5,518 nt of DNA from IMG/VR virus record IMGVR_UViG_2681813263_000014; one strand, given 5' to 3'. Origin of the DNA: a virus (lineage: Duplodnaviria > Heunggongvirae > Uroviricota > Caudoviricetes). This document shows positions 1 through 5,518 of the stretch, one piece after another. Below the pieces are notes generated by a model, which was not told where the DNA came from, made no database searches, and worked only from the letters and a program-made list of their open reading frames with translations. A program made the position numbers and the translations under genes. Each line of letters begins with the position of its first letter. Within the stretch, counting starts at the first letter, position 1.

Positions 1-280
1 ATGTATCAACACGGTTCAGCAACACCCGATACTTTTTCTAGGCTTCCACCACCAGCACGACAAGATGCCGCATACAGTGACCCAGTCAGTCCAGTTTTCA
101 GACAACCAGTGCGTCACCTTTTTGAAGGCGCTTTAAAGCACGTTTTAATCCAGGTCGGCCTGTCCTTGTTCCGCTTAATTTATCTTCAAATATTTGTTCA
201 TATCCTGCACAAACAAGAGCGTTTCGTTGCAGGTCTGTATTCTGGTCATTTGTTGATACCCTTACATAGCCAATCAGCAC
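1..280 (-). pseudogene. pin: Serine DNA invertase, Gin/Pin/Cin/Hin family, N-terminal part; probable pseudogene, and truncated by the window edge
   Basis: Minus-strand translation from GTG at 280-278 gives MLIGYVRVSTNDQNTDLQRNALVCAGYEQIFEDKLSGTRTGRPGLKRALKRLQKGDALVV, the typical N-terminus of Pin/Gin/Cin invertases, including the catalytic-serine context YVRVST. A GGGAG Shine-Dalgarno lies about 7 nt upstream. The frame hits TGA at 100-98 where these invertases have Trp, then continues as KLD*LGHCMRHL with further in-frame TGA and TAG codons. A full invertase of about 190 aa would also run past position 1. The ORF track extends the start to 304, which adds 8 unconserved codons. Confidence 0.6.
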
Positions 281-334
281 GCTGAATCTCCCGTCCAAAA
301 GCACAAATCATGCCATGCAGGCCAGAAACCGCCA

Positions 335-360
335 TTATCTAAAACCTCGGTTTACGAGAA
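335..360. repeat. Left inversion crossover site (gix/pix/cix-like, 26 bp)
   Basis: ttatctaaaacctcggtttacgagaa closely resembles the remembered gix consensus TTATCCAAAACCTCGGTTTACAGGAA. It matches the reverse complement of 3293-3318 at 22 of 26 positions with an identical central TC dinucleotide, and is itself an imperfect palindrome of two 12-bp half-sites. It lies 55 bp from the invertase start. Confidence 0.8.
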
Positions 361-1311
361 CTCGGCACAAGCGGGGAGAAAATACCGTTACTCAGTACAG
401 CGAATACCTGGACTAATCGACAAACATTCAGCGGTGGCCTTTCTGGTGAACTATCCGGCAATGCTTCTACAGCTGCAAAATTAAAAACTGCCAGGAAAAT
501 AAGCAATGTGGCTTTTGATGGTTCCTCCGATATCACATTAAAAGCAAGTCATGTTGGTGCGTTTGCCTTAGNNNNNNNNNNNNNNNNNNNNNTAGGGAAA
601 ACAGGAAGCACCGTTGCGAATGATAAAGCAGTTGGATGGAACTGGAGTAGCGGAGCCTATAACGCAACTATTAGTGGTGCATCAACGTTAATTATTCATT
701 TTTATATGGGAGAAGGAAGTTGTCCTGCAGCTCAGTTTCGGATTAATTATAAAAATGGCGGNNNNNNNNNNNNNNNNGGTATTTTTTATCGTTCAGCCCG
801 TGATGGTTATGGTTTTGAAGCCGACTGGTCCGAATTTTACACCACCAGAAAACCTTCAGCAGGAGATGTTGGTGCACTGCCGTTATCTGGTGGTCAACTG
901 AATGGTGCACTGGGTATCGGAACATCCAGTGCTCTTGGCGGTAATTCGATTGTATTGGGTGATAATGACACGGGCTTTAAACAAAAAGGCGATGGTAATC
1001 TGGATGTTTATGCTAATAACGTCCATGTTATGCGCTTTGTCTCCGGAAGCATTCAAAGTAATAAAACCATAAATATTACGGGACGTGTTAATCCCTCGGA
1101 TTACGGTAACTTTGATTCCCGCTATGTGAGAGATGTCAGACTTGGCACACGAGTTGTTCAGACCATGAAGAAAGGCGTGATGTATGAAAAATCAGGCCAT
1201 GTAATCACGGGGCTTGGTATTATCGGTGAAGTCGATGGTGATGATCCGGCAGTATTCAGACCAATACAAAAGTTAATTAACGGAACATGGTATAACGTAT
1301 CGCAGGTATAA
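343..1311 (+). CDS. Alternative tail-fibre C-terminal cassette (Sv'-like), startless and silent in this orientation
   Basis: Frame 1 is open from just after the TAA at 340-342 (inside the left site) to TAA at 1309-1311; the track ORF 508..1311 is its GTG-initiated part. There is no start codon or RBS at the 5' end. The C-terminus [15 protein letters not shown] ... [17 protein letters not shown] parallels the active stf C-terminus [16 protein letters not shown] ... [17 protein letters not shown]. Contains N-runs at 572-592 and 762-777. Confidence 0.85.
572..592. other. Run of 21 undetermined bases (N)
   Basis: Directly visible. The reading frame is maintained across it. Confidence 1.
762..777. 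other. Run of 16 undetermined bases (N)
   Basis: Directly visible. The same frame with a conserved fibre C-terminus continues downstream, so the masked length is probably the true length. Confidence 1.
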
Positions 1312-1313
1312 TC

Positions 1314-1847
1314 ATGCAGCATTTAAAAAACATTGTCGCAGGTAATCCAAAAACCGTTGAACAATACCAGCTAACAAAGAATTTTGATGTTATCTGGTTA
1401 TGGTCCGAAGATGGAAAAAATTGGCATGAGGAATTAAAAAACTTTCAGGAGGATACAATAAAACTGGCTTACACAGTTGAGGGAATAATTATTGCTATAG
1501 ACAAGGATGTATCAGCAATTAATCCAGAAGGTTTAAGTGTCGTTGAGTTGCCTGATATTACAGCAAATCGCCGGGCTGATATTTCGGGCAACTGGATGTT
1601 CAAAGATGGTGCGGTGATAAAGCGAACTTATACCGAGGAAGAGCAAAGGCAACAAGCGGAAAATGAAAAGCAGAGCCTGCTGCAGCTCGTCAGGGATAAA
1701 ACCCAGCTGTGGGACTCTCAGCTACAGCTGGGCATCATTTCCGATGAGAATAAACAAAAATTAACCGAGTGGATGCTCTATGCGCAGAAGGTTGAATCCA
1801 CAGACACCTCCAGCCTGCCAGTAACGTTTCCCGAACAACCAGAATGA
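1314..1847 (+). CDS. tfa: Tail fibre assembly chaperone, alternative copy (Tfa'/U'-like)
   Basis: ATG at 1314 lies 2 nt after the cassette stop, with AGGT 7 nt upstream. The N-terminus [22 protein letters not shown] is paralogous to the minus-strand tfa ([22 protein letters not shown]). 177 aa, stop TGA at 1845-1847. Tfa family assignment is from the remembered conserved N-terminus. Confidence 0.88.
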
Positions 1848-1850
1848 GAG

Positions 1851-1880
1851 AAGGCCCGCTATCGGGCCTTAATTTTTATT
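1851..1880 (+). terminator. Rho-independent terminator at the convergence point of the two tfa genes
   Basis: Perfect 8-bp stem aaggcccg (1851-1858) / cgggcctt (1863-1870) with loop ctat, followed by aatttttatt. It sits 4 nt after the tfa' stop. The downstream side on the minus strand is less T-rich, so bidirectional function is uncertain. Confidence 0.65.
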
Positions 1881-2403
1881 CAGGCTTTTGTGGCCATTCA
1901 GGATTTGCCGTATCCACACGGCTGACCAGAACACTGTAGCGTTCCCATGCTTCCAGTCGTGTGCGTTCCTCGTCTGTTGCCATATTCAGCCTGACAGCGC
2001 GTTCCAGCGGCTGGATGACTGATTCAGCTTCGGAAAGCAATGCGGCCTTTTGTGATTCGGCCTGTTGTTGCAGTTCCTGTTCTGTATATTCCCTCTTTAC
2101 TACTTTACCATCCAGAAACATCCATTTTCCGTTATTGTCTGCGTGACGATTTGCCGTAATATCAGGAACTTCAACTATGCTTAGCCCTTCAGGATTAATA
2201 GTTGAAACGTCTTTACTGACAGCAACGATGATGTTGTTCTCATCGTAAGCAATTTTTATGGTGTCTGGCTGAAAATTCTTTTGTTCCTCATACCAGTTTT
2301 TGCCATCTTCGCAAAAGAGCCATACCACGCCCGCTTTTTTAGTTAGCTGGTATTGTTCCGGTGTTTTCGGATTCCCGGCCTTAATATTTTTCAGGTGCAT
2401 CAT
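1876..2403 (-). CDS. tfa: Tail fibre assembly chaperone (Tfa/U-like), cognate to the currently expressed stf C-terminus
   Basis: ATG at 2403-2401 follows the stf stop (2407-2405) by one base, with GGGGAG about 9 nt upstream. Product [37 protein letters not shown]..., stop TAA at 1878-1876. The track ORF start at 2439 overlaps the end of stf and is an upstream extension. Confidence 0.9.
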
Positions 2404-2404
2404 C

Positions 2405-5386
2405 TTAAACACTCCCCACGTTGTACCATATTCCCCCAATCAATTTCTGAATTGGCCTTCTGGCAACAGTGTCGACAATATCATCCGCATTGCTGTTAAT
2501 TGCGGCTGTTAAAACATAACCTGACGCATCGCCAAAGCCGTAGTCGCGCCATACGTTTTTATATTCAATGCTGCCAAGACGAATATCCCGAACGACATGA
2601 TTATGCAGCCATGTGCTTAACCAGTTGTTTTCCCACACTGAACCATAAATATCGCCACTAGACGCAACTTGCGCACCACTTCCCAGCGCAAATCCCCCAT
2701 CTGTTTTAAAAATGAAATCACCACCACCATCTGAACCGTTATTAATATGAACACCATCACCACCGTTATCTTTCCACAAAAACATACGAATTCTTCCGTC
2801 TTCGTTGGCGAATGTAATGTGGTGGCGGTAATTACTTTTTAATCTAAAATTGCTGCCATTAGATTCAATATCTTTATAAAGATGTAATCCTAACTCATCA
2901 ATATGTCCGATGCGCGAACCATTTGAATAGAAGCTAATAATACCATCTCCATCTTGCCTAAATCCGGTGTCGTTATCTCCCAGAACAATGGAGTTTTCAC
3001 CCAGTGCGTTATCAGTAGCTCCAATAGCTAGACCTCCTTTAATTTTGGCCCCGTGGCTGACAGATATAGCACCTGTTCTCAGATTTATAGCGAATGGCCT
3101 TAATGGGCCGATATTACCGTTTTCGCCTTGTCCTTCAGCCGTCGGAATGAAATGAAGAAAATCTTCTGAACGACGGAAAATTAGACCGAAGGTATCATTG
3201 AAAATTCGCAGCGCATTCACCGTGCCAATTTTCAGTTCTCCGGTCATTTTATCGCCGGAACGCTGAACGGCGTTACCAGCCTTGTTTACCGTTTCCTGTA
3301 AACCGAGGTATTCGATAACGGCAGCAACGGTCGATTTCGCAAGAATATCCCGCCCGACTTTTGTCAGGGTTGCCAGGCTGGCGACATCATTCCCCGTAAA
3401 ATACGGAAACTTGCCTGCCGCAGTAGTAAGTCCGGCCAGCGCCGTCAGGGTGGCATCTTTCGGTTGCTTACCCGCAAGCGCGTTAGTCATGGTGGTCGCA
3501 AAATTCGGGTCGTTGCCCAGCGCCGCAGCCAGCTCGTTCAGCGTGTTCAGTGCATCAGGTGACGAATCTACAAGGGCGGCAATCGCAGCCATAACGAAAG
3601 CCGTGCTTGCGATTTGGGTATTATTCGTTCCCTGTCGCGCAGTTGGTGTTGTTGGCGTTCCGGTCAGTGCAGGACTATTTAAGGGCGCTTTCTTGTTCGT
3701 TTCACCCATTACCGCCTTAACCGCTTTTGGCGTTGCCGCCAGTGACTCGGAAGTGCTGTTGGTCGCACTGCTGAGCTGTACTATCCCCTTTTTCGTCGTG
3801 CTCGCATCCTCAAGCGCCACGGCGGATGCAATATCCTCTGCCCGTTTTGCTGCTGTCTCGGCGCGCGTTGCCGCGGATTCAGCAGCAACTTTGCTCTGAG
3901 ATGCAGCCGTCGCACTGCCTGCCGCCTCTGATGCTTTCGTTGTTGCTGTCGTGGCACTACCTTTCGCTGCTGACGCTTGTCTGGTCGCCTCATCTTTTGA
4001 AGCAGACGCAGATGATGCCGATGACGCCGCTGAACTGGCTGACGATGCGGCTGCTGCCTTAGAGGAAGCAGCATTGTCTGCTGAAGTCTTTGCATTTGTT
4101 TCAGAGGTTTTTGCTGCAGAAGCAGACCTCGCTGCTGCAGTGGCTTGCTCAGTGGCTTTGCCAGCCTTCGTTGTGGCTGTTGAAGCGGATGATGCGGCGC
4201 TTTCTGCCGATTTTCCGGCGGCGGTGGCACTGGCTGAGGCCTGCCCGGCACTTGTTGACGCGGCGCTGGCAGACGACGCAGCCGCTGTTTTTGAGCCTGC
4301 CGCAGCTGAGGCACTCTGTCCCGCTGCCGTTTCAGAAGACCTGGCGTTCGTCTCGGACGTTTTGGCCGCCTTCGCAGAATTTGCAGCCGCCGTCGCCGAG
4401 GAAGCTGCACTACTNNNNNNNNNNNNNNNNNNNNNNNNNNNNNNNNNNNNNNNNNNNNNNNNNNNNNNNNNNNNNNNNNNNNNNNNNNNNNNNNNNNNNN
4501 NNNNNNNNNNNNNNNNNNNNNNNNNNNNNNNNNNNNNNNNNNNNNNNNNNNNNNNNNNNNNNNNNNNNNNNNNNNNNNNNNNNNNNNNNGCCGAGGAAGC
4601 TGCGCTACTGGCGCTTGATGATGCGTTCGTTTCTGATGATTTTGCCGCCTCTTTTGAAGCCGACGCATCCCGGGCTGAGGTGGCAGCTTCTGACGCTTTC
4701 GTGGTCGCGGTGGATGCAGAAGTGGCTGCTGATTGTTGTGACGCTGCCGCATTCGTTTCTAACGTTTTCGCCGCACCGGCACTGGTAGCCGCCGCGCTTT
4801 TTGAGGACTCTGCAGCGGCAGCACTTTTTGAGGCTTCAGTGGCCTTTGTTGATGCCGTTCCTGCGCTGGAAGACGCTGACTGAGCCGACGAAGCGGCCTG
4901 TCCGGCTGACGTGCTGGCTGCACGTGCTGAATCTGCAGCATCAGTCGCATGGGTTGCCGCCTCACGGGCTGATGTGCTGGCATCGCTGGCTGATTTCTTC
5001 GCGGCTGCCGTGTTCTGTGCCACCGCGGACGCGTTACGCGCCACCTCTTCCACCATCAGCTCAAAACGGCGCAGTGCCTCCGGACGGGCATCATCCTCCG
5101 TCATGGCACCGAGAAAATCATTCAGCGTACCGGGTCGGGAATCTTCATACACGGTGATGGTCCCGGCATGTGACGGCGGGAATCCTTCCACCAACAGAAT
5201 AACGCTGTACTGACCGTACTCAACGTCCATGCTGTAACGCCCGGCTTCATCCGGATTTTCTGAGGCCAGCGTGTTCACCACCACCGTGGTGCTGTTACGT
5301 TTTGCTTTCAGCTGGATTGTGCAGTTCTGTACCGGTTTTCCTGTGCCGTCTTTCAGTACACCTGAAATCTTTACTGCCATATTCAC
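2405..5386 (-). CDS. stf: Side tail fibre protein, lambda Stf-like constant part fused to an invertible C-terminal variable part
   Basis: 993-codon ORF. The N-terminus [38 protein letters not shown] and the long Ala/Ser/Thr-rich region match my recollection of phage lambda Stf through ...[16 protein letters not shown]. The likely true start is the ATG at 5380 (MAVKISG). The sequence after EYLG (2405-3292) lies inside the invertible segment. Contains a 175-nt N-run at 4415-4589 with the frame preserved. Confidence 0.93.
3293..3318. repeat. Right inversion crossover site (gix/pix/cix-like, 26 bp), inside the stf coding sequence
   Basis: ttcctgtaaaccgaggtattcgataa is the inverted partner of 335-360. 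On the minus strand it encodes IEYLGLQE in the stf frame, at the constant/variable boundary. Confidence 0.8.
4415..4589. other. Run of 175 undetermined bases (N) inside the stf Ala/Ser-rich repeat region
   Basis: Directly visible. The stf frame is identical on both sides, so the run length is consistent with the true length (175 = 1 mod 3 fits the surrounding codon phase). Confidence 1.
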
Positions 5387-5391
5387 CCCAC

Positions 5392-5417
5392 AAAAAAGCC
5401 CGCCTGAACCGGCGGGC
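5392..5417 (-). terminator. Rho-independent terminator between lom and stf
   Basis: Read on the minus strand: gcccgcc ggttca ggcgggc followed by tttttt (plus-strand stem 5398-5404 / 5411-5417, A-tract 5392-5397). Lies 5 nt upstream of the stf ATG at 5386 and 28 nt downstream of the lom stop. Confidence 0.65.
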
Positions 5418-5444
5418 TGTCATAACACTGTGTTACCTGGCTAA

Positions 5445-5518
5445 TCAGAATTTATAACCGACACCCACGATGAAACCGTCAGTGCGCCAGAGACGTGTTG
5501 CTGTGGCGACCGTCATCA
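5445..5518 (-). CDS. lom: 3' end of an Ail/Lom-family outer-membrane protein gene (partial, continues beyond the window)
   Basis: Minus-strand frame reads ...TVATATRLWRTDGFIVGVGYKF then TGA (stop at 5447-5445). The aromatic C-terminal YKF is typical of Ail/Lom beta-barrel proteins, and the position upstream of stf matches lambda gene order. Only 24 codons are visible. Confidence 0.6.
   Translation of the reverse strand, partial: MTVATATRLWRTDGFIVGVGYKF

Follow-up and report, generated by a model that had tools for sequence, protein, structure and literature searches.

That unrelated phages trade tail-fibre genes is well established, and PMC3945230 attributes this to stf-associated invertases, with Haggard-Ljungquist 1992 and Sandmeier 1992 and 1994 cited as the sources. 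According to the same paper, the mosaic kinship of lambda Stf, P2 H, Mu S and P1 S, together with a proposed role of the invertase, has been known since 1992-94, so a mosaic of this type is of low novelty. Inversion has been measured in E. coli cultures for lambdoid e14, P2-like and Mu prophages (PMC4272514). In e14, the C-terminus of stf is switched by an invertase of the Hin/Gin/Pin family, and both orientations occur together in cultures (PMC4272514).

We compared with these systems a 5,518-nt stretch of Caudoviricetes DNA from IMG/VR record IMGVR_UViG_2681813263_000014 (the window). Its layout follows the order of the Mu G segment (Gin; S/U and S'/U'), namely constant part, 26-bp site, Sv, U, U', Sv', site and invertase. 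The likeness to Mu includes the first ~40 nt inside the segment (89% identical), the tfa/tfa' region (82% to U/U') and the invertase remnant (92.5% to gin at the nucleotide level). However, Mu Sc and the constant region of the window are not related, the receptor-binding parts are only distantly related to Mu S and S', and Mu reads IQNLGLQE where the window reads IEYLGLQE. The window element also differs from Mu in being lambdoid with a non-contractile tail and in having an invertase pseudogene.

P2 gpH and the P2-like Xuanwuvirus elements with an invertible fibre (P88, P884B11, Shae_phiSM and the JJ2434 prophage of E. coli ST131) have the module at 3319-3713 in 92-100% identical form, the same cassette order and a GC step at the same motif, whereas the window is without the N-terminal baseplate-attachment part of gpH and carries a lambdoid PF08400 domain and an Ala/Ser-rich shaft instead. 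P2 itself has one site only and no invertase. Lambda Stf-Tfa, the side tail fibres of Ur-lambda, resembles the window up to EYLG (77-88% at the nucleotide and 80-82% at the amino-acid level) but has a single fixed C-terminal part (AGENSAFP...), the outer half-site only, and neither invertase nor alternative exons. The P segment and PinE of e14, a defective lambdoid prophage of E. coli K-12, are like the window in architecture only, and e14 has kept a working pinE, unlike the window with its pseudogene. The last comparison was with the P1 C segment (Cin) and P1-like phage-plasmids. A 93-kb plasmid, judged to be P1-like from its size and gene content, has the Sv tip and tfa of the window (97.5% over 2405-2918, 91.7% over 1258-3280) in an invertible segment adjoining an intact recombinase. 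The cix sites, however, differ in their outer arms and have TT as the core, and the P1 S protein is only 30% identical overall.

We consider it very probable that the window covers the side-tail-fibre region of a lambdoid prophage (lom - stf - remnant tfa) in which stf is a multi-module chimera, remade around an invertible host-range cassette of the Gin/Pin type. Such a chimera would consist of at least four modules, which are the lambdoid N-terminal domain with the Ala/Ser-rich shaft (5380-3811), a conserved box (3810-3714), a P2-gpH-type distal constant module (3713-3319) and, past the IEYLGLQE site, a receptor-binding part from the Mu/P1 pool with its own chaperone. The cassette would run in the order crossover site, Sv, tfa, tfa', Sv', crossover site, invertase.

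The stf locus and its two crossover sites

The window has PF08400, the lom-stf-tfa neighbourhood and nucleotide homology to lambda stf, as a lambda-type Stf locus should. The N-terminal domain and the Ala/Ser-rich repeat shaft lie at 3811-5380 on the minus strand (Pfam PF08400 'Prophage tail fibre N-terminal', E=1.3e-71) and are 90-97% identical to PhiR26_1 and 79-88% to lambda, while segment comparison gave no match of this part to P2, Mu or P88. The lambda homology falls into three blocks, 5490-4590, 4413-4277 and 3972-3303, and a run of 175 N at 4415-4589 interrupts the shaft. Three N runs in all fall within Sv' and the shaft, and relatives had to be used for the length and reading frame of both. 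Upstream of stf are the 3' end of lom and a terminator, and downstream is a tfa remnant. A lambda-type C-terminal receptor-binding part with its cognate Tfa was not found; the lambdoid tfa is cut to 51 nt of its 3' end (1-51, minus strand; 94% to lambda tfa and 96% to PhiR26_1 tfa) and is fused to the invertase remnant. In E. coli AR_0069, the homologous stretch bears the annotation 'tail fiber assembly protein', partial. Annotation often breaks such genes up into a number of partial or pseudo CDS, which is the case in the RefSeq relatives, and the anatomy given here can be of use in correcting this.

Two inverted 26-bp sites of the Gin/Pin type with the same central dinucleotide, TC, bound the segment. 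The right site (3293-3318) reads TTATCGAATACC-TC-GGTTTACAGGAA on the minus, coding strand (core 3305-3306), and its inverted partner on the left (335-360, plus strand) reads TTATCTAAAACC-TC-GGTTTACGAGAA (core 347-348). The degenerate site pattern occurred twice in the window against 0.00 expected from 200 shuffles, and a repeat search paired the two sites as inverted repeat I2 (30 nt, 83% complementary). Both Mu gix sites, at the annotated G-segment boundaries of the Mu record, read TTATCCAAAACCTCGGTTTACAGGAA, from which the window sites differ by 2-3 mismatches, the left one at 3 of 26 positions. The crossover site of P88 is identical to the window site. The first-pass annotation had held that the crossover site itself encodes IEYLGLQE, and indeed the right site in frame translates as (V)I E Y L G L Q E, with the EYLG codons at 3313-3302. 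A Din-family serine invertase would pair the two sites and exchange strands at the central TC/GA (3305-3306 and 347-348), so that inversion would swap Sv and tfa for Sv' and tfa' behind the same constant region, in frame.

Two in-frame C-terminal exons for one constant exon, each with its own chaperone, were found between the sites. The currently expressed variable C-terminal part of Stf is Sv (2405-3305, minus strand; 298 aa after EYLG). Its best phage protein match reached 44.5% (Muvirus vB_YpM_23/3), with P2 H and P1 at 30% each. The proximal piece of Sv (2919-3263) is 89% identical to Muvirus vB_YpM_3, whereas a search of 5426 E. coli genomes for the tip (2405-2918) found it in only 26, with an identity of 97-99%. 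Two of these carriers were inspected; one has the tip in the E24377A Mu-like prophage and the other in the P1-like 93-kb plasmid. An exact 30-nt pattern from the tip matched 13 IMG/VR contigs and none of the genome contigs searched with one genome per species. Sv is paired with the chaperone gene tfa (1876-2403, minus strand; Pfam Caudo_TAP, E=7.9e-37), which is ~80% identical to Mu, P2 and P88; tip and tfa together are 98% identical to the Mu-like prophage and to P1-like plasmids. A hairpin terminator at 1851-1870 (terminator scan: 8 pairs, 6 of them GC, then a T run) separates tfa from the convergent tfa' (1314-1847, plus strand; Caudo_TAP, E=4.8e-34), the chaperone paired with Sv'. The identity of tfa' is 84% to the Mu U/U' region and ~70-84% to all comparison sequences. 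The silent alternative exon, Sv' (343-1311, plus strand), is an open frame that gives an in-frame junction after inversion; its proximal part is P2-like (96-100%), and the synthetic flipped junction found 100% matches in E. coli genomes. Pfam hits on Sv and Sv' were weak and of the gp37 type only (gp37_C/gp37_trimer on Sv'), an NCBIfam search of both variable parts found no family, and a promoter scan gave fewer matches than in shuffles.

Both tfa genes, the crossover sites and the invertase remnant are related to Mu, P2-like and P1-like sequences at 80-95% nucleotide identity. Judged by these affinities, the invertible interior is a patchwork of Mu-like, P1-like and P2-like pieces with at least four affinities. 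The variable module had been described as Mu/P1-type, which fits its Mu-like and P1-like pieces and leaves out the P2-like ones.

The homology break at EYLG

The nucleotide homology to lambda stf runs from 3972 to 3303 and ends inside the EYLG codons, within the site core; after 3303, neither nucleotide nor protein comparison found a lambda match. From the variable side, homology to Muvirus vB_YpM_3 and the E24377A Mu-like prophage enters the site and ends at 3318, its outer edge. Separate searches with the two sides showed that the 179 aa preceding EYLG are 92.9% identical to P2 gpH and 80-82% to lambda Stf, while the Muvirus protein at 44.5% was the best phage match after it. The nucleotide homology to P2 and P88 covers 3264-3810 (for P2 H, 88.5% in nucleotides and 92.9% in amino acids), and the identity to P2 gpH falls from 93% to 30% across adjacent codons (P2 record positions 13873/13874). 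These results demonstrated that EYLG with the crossover site is a genuine mosaic boundary, sharp to the base pair. The boundary is common to this gene family and is probably old. The mosaic junction proposed at EYLG, with its divergence from lambda just past the motif, was thus confirmed.

The half-sites behaved differently on the two sides of the core. The outer half-site tracks the type of the constant region, being GAATAC in the window, P2 and P88 and CAAAAC in the Mu-likes, and the inner half-site is common to all of them. P2 H keeps a lone relic site that agrees with the window site at 25 of 26 positions. Lambda reads TTCTTGAATACC TT GGGGCCGGTGAG at the equivalent position, retaining the outer half-site alone (protein VLEYLG|AGEN). 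The joint may have been made by site-specific exchange at the 26-bp site or by short-homology recombination within it.

A different explanation is that EYLG is a protein-domain boundary only, where the motif is kept for structural reasons and ordinary recombination nearby, followed by selection, makes the joints with no part played by the DNA site. Retention of EYLG in lambda without a complete site agrees with this, as do the breaks at conserved boxes that are no invertase sites (3705-3722 and ~2919) and the P1-like plasmid, in which the shared Sv module begins ~10 nt past the ENLGLTD motif and ~230 nt inside the plasmid's own C-type invertible segment. However, the boundary matches the 26-bp site within a few bases in the lambda, Mu-like and P2-like comparisons, and the relic in P2 H preserves the site at the nucleotide level and not the peptide alone. 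Exchange at the core would leave an outer half-site that follows the constant region and an inner one common to all, which is the pattern seen, and clonal isolates differ by an inversion whose exchange points lie inside the sites (below). We therefore regard a purely structural boundary as quite unlikely.

Base composition changes at the same place. As the first-pass annotation had noted, the interior is richer in AT, with a GC of 0.436 in the invertible segment (336-3305) and 0.425 in tfa' (1314-1847) against 0.577 in the constant region (3306-5380). The maximum-likelihood changepoint in GC lies at 3253 (support 3203-3414; log-likelihood ratio 48 against a null maximum of 7.5), and GC3 falls from 0.54 just upstream of the site (3319-3713) to 0.36-0.37 downstream of it. 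The shaft might be thought to produce this step as a by-product of its Ala and Ser codons (GCN/TCN), which would make the step uninformative on origin, because Ala and Ser make up 51% of residues in 5380-3811 (GC2 0.70). However, the step lies away from the end of the shaft near 3811, and 3319-3713, with 24% Ala+Ser, still has the higher GC3; amino-acid bias as its source was thus ruled out by GC3, and this explanation is extremely improbable. The same step at the same motif was also found in P2 H (0.558 to 0.437) and in the JJ2434 fibre (0.544 to 0.432). Since they share it, the step belongs to the shared module pool and is no mark of recent acquisition by this prophage.

A second joint at the conserved box

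The constant region had been taken as lambda-type throughout, and homology to lambda does continue to 3303. However, nucleotide and protein identities showed that its distal part (3319-3713, minus strand, with the ...AAV end) is of the P2-gpH type, being 100% identical to the tail-fibre gene of the JJ2434 P2-like prophage (E. coli ST131), 96% to P88 and 92% to P2 H, and only 77% to lambda. In segment comparison, this part was absent from the lambdoid phage PhiR26_1, in which homology begins at 3714. Next to it lies a conserved PKAVKAV box (3714-3810, minus strand), whose segment identities are 96-100% to lambdoid elements, 73-79% to P2-likes and 70% to Mu; P88 and PhiR26_1 have the box in several copies. 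No P2 match was found upstream of 3810, and the baseplate-binding N-terminal part of gpH does not accompany the distal module here.

Above 3722 (inclusive) the window and JJ2434 differ at many positions, and from 3704 down at none, which places a break between lambdoid and P2-like sequence at ~3705-3722, on the downstream edge of the box and ~400 nt upstream of EYLG in the gene. Below the break, a perfect tract of ~700 nt with the JJ2434 P2-like prophage joins 3704-3305 to 349-667, crosses the site and exists only in the flipped configuration. The most recent joint between lambdoid and P2-like sequence in this lineage would lie at the box rather than at EYLG, and homologous recombination most probably made it. 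The transfer may have gone from a P2-like to a lambdoid prophage or the reverse, as either direction fits. Since lambda also has the segment, at 77%, the ancestral lambdoid prophage may have had its own copy that was later overwritten, so that 3319-3713 need not be a new insertion but may reflect gene conversion.

These findings bear on the earlier suggestion that the inversion module was acquired as a unit, in which a lambda-type stf would have captured the whole Mu/P1-type module in one step, the joint being made by invertase crossover at EYLG. The stops of lambda homology at the core and of Mu-like homology at 3318 speak for a single capture, as do the GC and GC3 step at the site and the crediting of such exchanges to stf-associated invertases in PMC3945230. 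On the other hand, the 400 nt upstream of the site are of the P2-H type, the perfect ~700-nt tract with a P2-like prophage runs through the site, and the interior has its several affinities. The GC step is just as marked in P2 H, which has no inversion system, and at its far end the module is joined illegitimately, within the invertase gene and not at a crossover site. Unit acquisition was thus not borne out, and we consider one-step capture unlikely. The multi-module chimera offers an example at base-pair resolution of tail-fibre genes built of interchangeable modules, with joints at the invertase site and at conserved boxes, and these joints could guide the choice of fusion points in host-range engineering; it brings no new principle.

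The invertase remnant and inversion in relatives

In Gin and Hin systems, a Fis-dependent recombinational enhancer sits in the 5' part of the invertase gene. Adjacent to the segment, the window has a pseudogene of a Gin/Pin-type serine invertase (52-280, minus strand; ~75 N-terminal codons; Pfam Resolvase N-terminal domain, E=4.6e-15), so the intact serine invertase that adjoins a site in a Din-family switch is missing here. Its translation (...GDALVV*KLD*LGHCMRHLVVLVVEA*) contains three in-frame stops, and the homologue in E. coli genomes is annotated as a partial recombinase pseudogene. Mu gin and the invertase genes of P88, vB_YpM_3 and JJ2434 match the stretch 90-334 with their 5' ends at 92-95% identity, and on the strength of this identity the remnant probably still carries the enhancer. 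No other invertase was seen within the 5.5-kb window.

Inversion itself was seen in relatives only. Near-identical elements in the opposite orientation were found at the IMG/VR locus L022 (the same element, 98-99% identical, with 331-3322 inverted) and in NCTC86. In the clonal ST131 isolates 4/0 and 4/1-1, the flanks are 100% identical and the interior is exactly inverted; the neighbouring recombinase of this locus is a 180-nt pseudogene, but a P2-like prophage elsewhere in 4/1-1 encodes an intact invertase. Because the invertase is a pseudogene and relatives nevertheless carry both orientations, the segment is probably flipped in trans; with the cis enzyme dead, any flipping must be. The invertase could be supplied by another element in the same cell, of the P2-like, Mu-like, P1-like or e14-like kind.

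The cassette might instead be a frozen relic, with the invertase destroyed, inversion at an end and stf fixed as Sv. The truncation of the invertase gene, its stops and its fusion to the tfa remnant agree with such a relic, and so does the single invertase trace in the window. However, both crossover sites are intact with matching cores, Sv' and tfa' remain open reading frames, L022 and NCTC86 have the opposite orientation, and the homologous ST131 locus, which has this pseudogene too, is found in either orientation among clonal isolates. A frozen relic is therefore doubtful. We give an even chance to an orphan switch, in which the lambdoid prophage, its own invertase being lost, retains a functional two-state host-range cassette that is flipped by a co-resident P2-like (or Mu/P1-like) prophage, while tail-fibre exchange continues through the site and the box. 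The continuing exchange is suggested by the perfect ~700-nt tract, since it is contiguous only in the flipped state. Flipping of an orphan cassette in trans would be the sole mildly interesting addition to what is known; if true, the orphan switch would mean that a prophage depends functionally on an unrelated one in the same chromosome and that genes flow between the two.

Two further IMG/VR loci, L020 and L023, are 99-100% identical to the window over 1-4414, and over 4590-5518 a third, L021, has 100% identity. Two 1119-nt queries for the orientations in the lambdoid context each matched 437 records (436 genomes) at >=80% coverage, a threshold that the constant part alone reaches and that does not discriminate the orientations; the evidence on orientation was therefore restricted to full-length matches and inspected loci. 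Hundreds of E. coli genome sequences contain this architecture.

Gene layout and crossover sites

The minus strand of the window carried the 3' end of lom, a hairpin terminator (5418-5397), and then the long gene stf, running from an ATG at 5380 to a stop at 2405-2407 and followed by the tail-fibre assembly gene tfa (2403-1876). Convergent with stf and tfa, the plus strand held Sv' (343-1311), the silent alternative to the expressed C-terminal part Sv and an open frame without start codon, upstream of a second tail-fibre assembly gene, tfa' (1314-1847). The start of stf, GGGGTGAATATG, stood after the terminator at 5397-5418, and another hairpin terminator was found at 1851-1870, between the convergent tfa' and tfa.

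The right 26-bp crossover site (3293-3318, minus; coding sense TTATCGAATACC TC GGTTTACAGGAA) reads I-E-Y-L-G-L-Q-E, with the EYLG codons at 3313-3302 and the central dinucleotide at 3305-3306. Its inverted partner was located at 335-360 (TTATCTAAAACC TC GGTTTACGAGAA), and the degenerate site pattern occurred twice in the window versus 0 in 200 shuffles. The annotated G-segment boundaries of the Mu record are centred in TTATCCAAAACCTCGGTTTACAGGAA, with 2-3 mismatches to the window sites, indicating that the latter are gix-type. Reading the junction in silico showed that inversion would put Sv' in frame behind the constant region (3306-5380).

The invertase adjoining the invertible segment (336-3305) is a pseudogene. 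Only the first ~75 codons of this serine invertase remained (52-280, minus; Pfam Resolvase, E=4.6e-15), and the translation, ...GDALVV*KLD*LGHCMRHLVVLVVEA*, had three in-frame stops. At ~51/52 this remnant was joined to what is left of a lambdoid tfa, its final 51 nt; there the imported cassette ends, on its far side, in an illegitimate joint.

Three N runs were present (572-592, 762-777, and 4415-4589, the last of 175 N). The IMG/VR contig L020, a 99-100% identical relative, had the flanks of the first and second runs abutting, with overlaps of 3 nt (TAG) and 2 nt (GG); the 175-N run was flanked by a 20-nt repeat (4395-4414, 4590-4609) that overlapped in L020 and in a second contig, L021. N run plus overlap came to 24, 18, and 195 nt, each a multiple of 3. 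Judged from these flanks, the three runs look like scaffold-gap artefacts rather than stand-ins for real sequence, so that Stf is probably ~928 aa long, not 993.

Homology on the two sides of EYLG

The first-pass annotation had placed a junction between a lambda-type constant region and a Mu/P1-type variable module at EYLG. The junction itself was borne out: stf nucleotide homology to lambda stopped at 3303, within the EYLG codons, and protein searches with the two halves were not uniform, with some phages common to both and an identity cliff exactly at the motif. The 179 residues before EYLG were 92.9% identical to P2 gpH and 90-92% to P88-type P2-like phages, but only 80-82% to lambda Stf. 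For the 298 residues after EYLG, the phage protein search gave no close relative, the top match being 44.5% (Muvirus vB_YpM_23 and vB_YpM_3), with P2 H and P1 at 30% each. Within the P2 record, the 93% match ended at 13873 and the 30% match started at 13874. In a PDB search, the junction fell within sequence homologous to the Mu S fibre, whose structure is solved (5yvq, 8ju3).

Nucleotide comparison with nine reference loci showed that the constant side at EYLG is of P2-H type, not lambda type. Segment 5380-3811 was 90-97% identical to PhiR26_1 and 79-88% to lambda, with no match in the P2-like loci or Mu. A conserved box at 3810-3714 matched lambdoid loci at 96-100%, P2-like loci at 73-79%, and Mu at 70%. 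Segment 3713-3319 matched the P2-like prophage of E. coli JJ2434 at 100%, P88 at 96%, and P2 H at 92% versus 77% for lambda; it was absent from PhiR26_1 and had essentially no match in Mu. Against the JJ2434 prophage there were 21 mismatches in 3722-3806, one at 3705, and 0 from 3704 to the site, which puts the lambdoid/P2-like break at ~3705-3722, some 400 nt 5' of EYLG in stf. EYLG is a real modular boundary, but one shared by the whole family, and the joint from which this chimera arose appears to be the one at 3705-3722.

The perfect JJ2434 tract of ~700 nt comprised 3704-3305 and 349-667, reaching into Sv', and was contiguous only with the segment flipped. This suggested that the P2-like/lambdoid exchange happened, or was passed on, in the other orientation and that inversion has occurred since; the tract points to a recent exchange between lambdoid and P2-like prophages.

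The outer half-site tracked the constant-region type, being GAATAC (EY) in the window, P2, and P88 and CAAAAC (QN) in Mu-likes, while the inner half-site was common to all of them. Such a pattern would be expected from module exchange at the site core. P2 H retained a relic site identical at 25/26 positions, although it has neither invertase nor partner site, and lambda (VLEYLG/AGEN) retained the outer half-site alone.

Composition and patchwork of the invertible segment

The interior was more AT-rich, as the first reading had noted. The constant region had a GC of 0.577 and the invertible segment one of 0.436, with the best changepoint at 3253 (support 3203-3414; log-likelihood ratio 48 vs shuffle maximum 7.5). 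GC3 fell from 0.54 in 3319-3713 to 0.36-0.37 past the site, so the step was not caused by Ala/Ser-rich composition. Similar drops were found at the P2 H relic site (0.558 to 0.437) and in the JJ2434 fibre (0.544 to 0.432), and therefore the step neither dates nor locates acquisition by this prophage. Lambda dropped only slightly (0.568 to 0.524), and in Mu S the step was all but absent. On these comparisons, the step is a property of the module pool.

The suggestion that the inversion module was acquired as a unit did not hold, since its interior pieces had P2-like, Mu-like, and other affinities. The JJ2434 P2-like prophage matched proximal Sv' (361-1100) at 96-100%. For proximal Sv (2919-3263), identity was 89% both with Muvirus vB_YpM_3 and with lambdoid prophages of E. 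coli. None of the JJ2434, vB_YpM_3, and E. coli lambdoid prophage loci compared contained the Sv tip (2405-2918), which is rare: among 5426 complete E. coli genomes it was detected in just 26, with identities of 97-99%. Two of these carriers were inspected. Homology to the E24377A Mu-like prophage (1258-3318) stopped exactly at the outer site edge, and homology to p88_0502-2, a 93-kb plasmid with P1-like features (1258-3280), began ~10 nt past an ENLGLTD motif, 230 nt inside the plasmid's own invertible segment; this ENLGLTD motif looks like a relic site-like box. Plasmids accounted for 13 of the 28 places of this receptor-binding tip.

Identity to AR_0069 and IPCEC48, the nearest of the E. 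coli lambdoid prophages, fell from 98-99% to 68-80% or nothing over ~1101-2918. The cassette centre, with both fibre tips and both chaperones, has apparently been replaced relative to these prophages. The right-hand break (~2919) lay near a 12-residue box common to Sv and Sv', and the left-hand one at ~1100.

The Mu G segment with Gin has the same layout and sites as the window; P2-like Xuanwuvirus phages share the distal constant module and cassette order, lambda Stf the N-terminal two-thirds and neighbourhood, and e14 the general concept, a lambdoid element whose fibre end can be inverted (PMC4272514). A passage of De Paepe et al. (PMC3945230) calls horizontal transfer of stf among unrelated phages "well documented", attributing it to stf-associated invertases and citing Haggard-Ljungquist 1992, Sandmeier 1992, and Sandmeier 1994. 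The tail-fibre mosaic is of a known kind, in a widespread E. coli prophage; the observation of a mosaic junction was confirmed, and its interpretation partly supported.

Both orientations among related prophages

The IMG/VR contig L022 carried this element (98-99% identical) in the other orientation: its flanks were unchanged, and the stretch corresponding to 331-3322 lay inverted between them. The closest lambdoid homologue, found in NCTC86, was 99.3% identical across the flipped junction. The clonal ST131 isolates 4/0 and 4/1-1 from Sweden shared an ISEc12 insertion in lom and had 100% identical flanks, and their interiors were exact inverses (locus positions 5877-8995), with the exchange inside the 26-bp sites. 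The recombinase adjoining the switch was a 180-nt pseudogene in both. A co-resident P2-like prophage of 4/1-1 carried an intact invertase (L028 positions 7117-7716) and nearly identical sites, suggesting, as the simplest reading, that the switch was flipped in trans across prophages. Gin, Cin, Pin, and Hin are interchangeable in function. Trans-activation fits this interchangeability, and also the measurements on E. coli cultures in which segments of e14, Mu, and P2-like prophages flipped (PMC4272514). In the E. coli genome census with 525-nt junctions, the unflipped type was found in 243 genomes and the flipped type in 330.

In another IMG/VR contig, L018 (IMGVR_UViG_2531839193_000006; positions 1-190 and 166-3838), constant region flanked the invertible segment on either side. 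The left copy was reverse-complemented and 100% identical to window 3298-3487, and the contig is probably an assembly from a culture with both orientations.

The homologous prophage lay at ompW, beside the trp operon and yciEFG, in AR_0069, IPCEC48, and NCTC86. RefSeq gives stf as two or more partial/pseudo CDS in these three genomes and as intact in 4/0 and 4/1-1.
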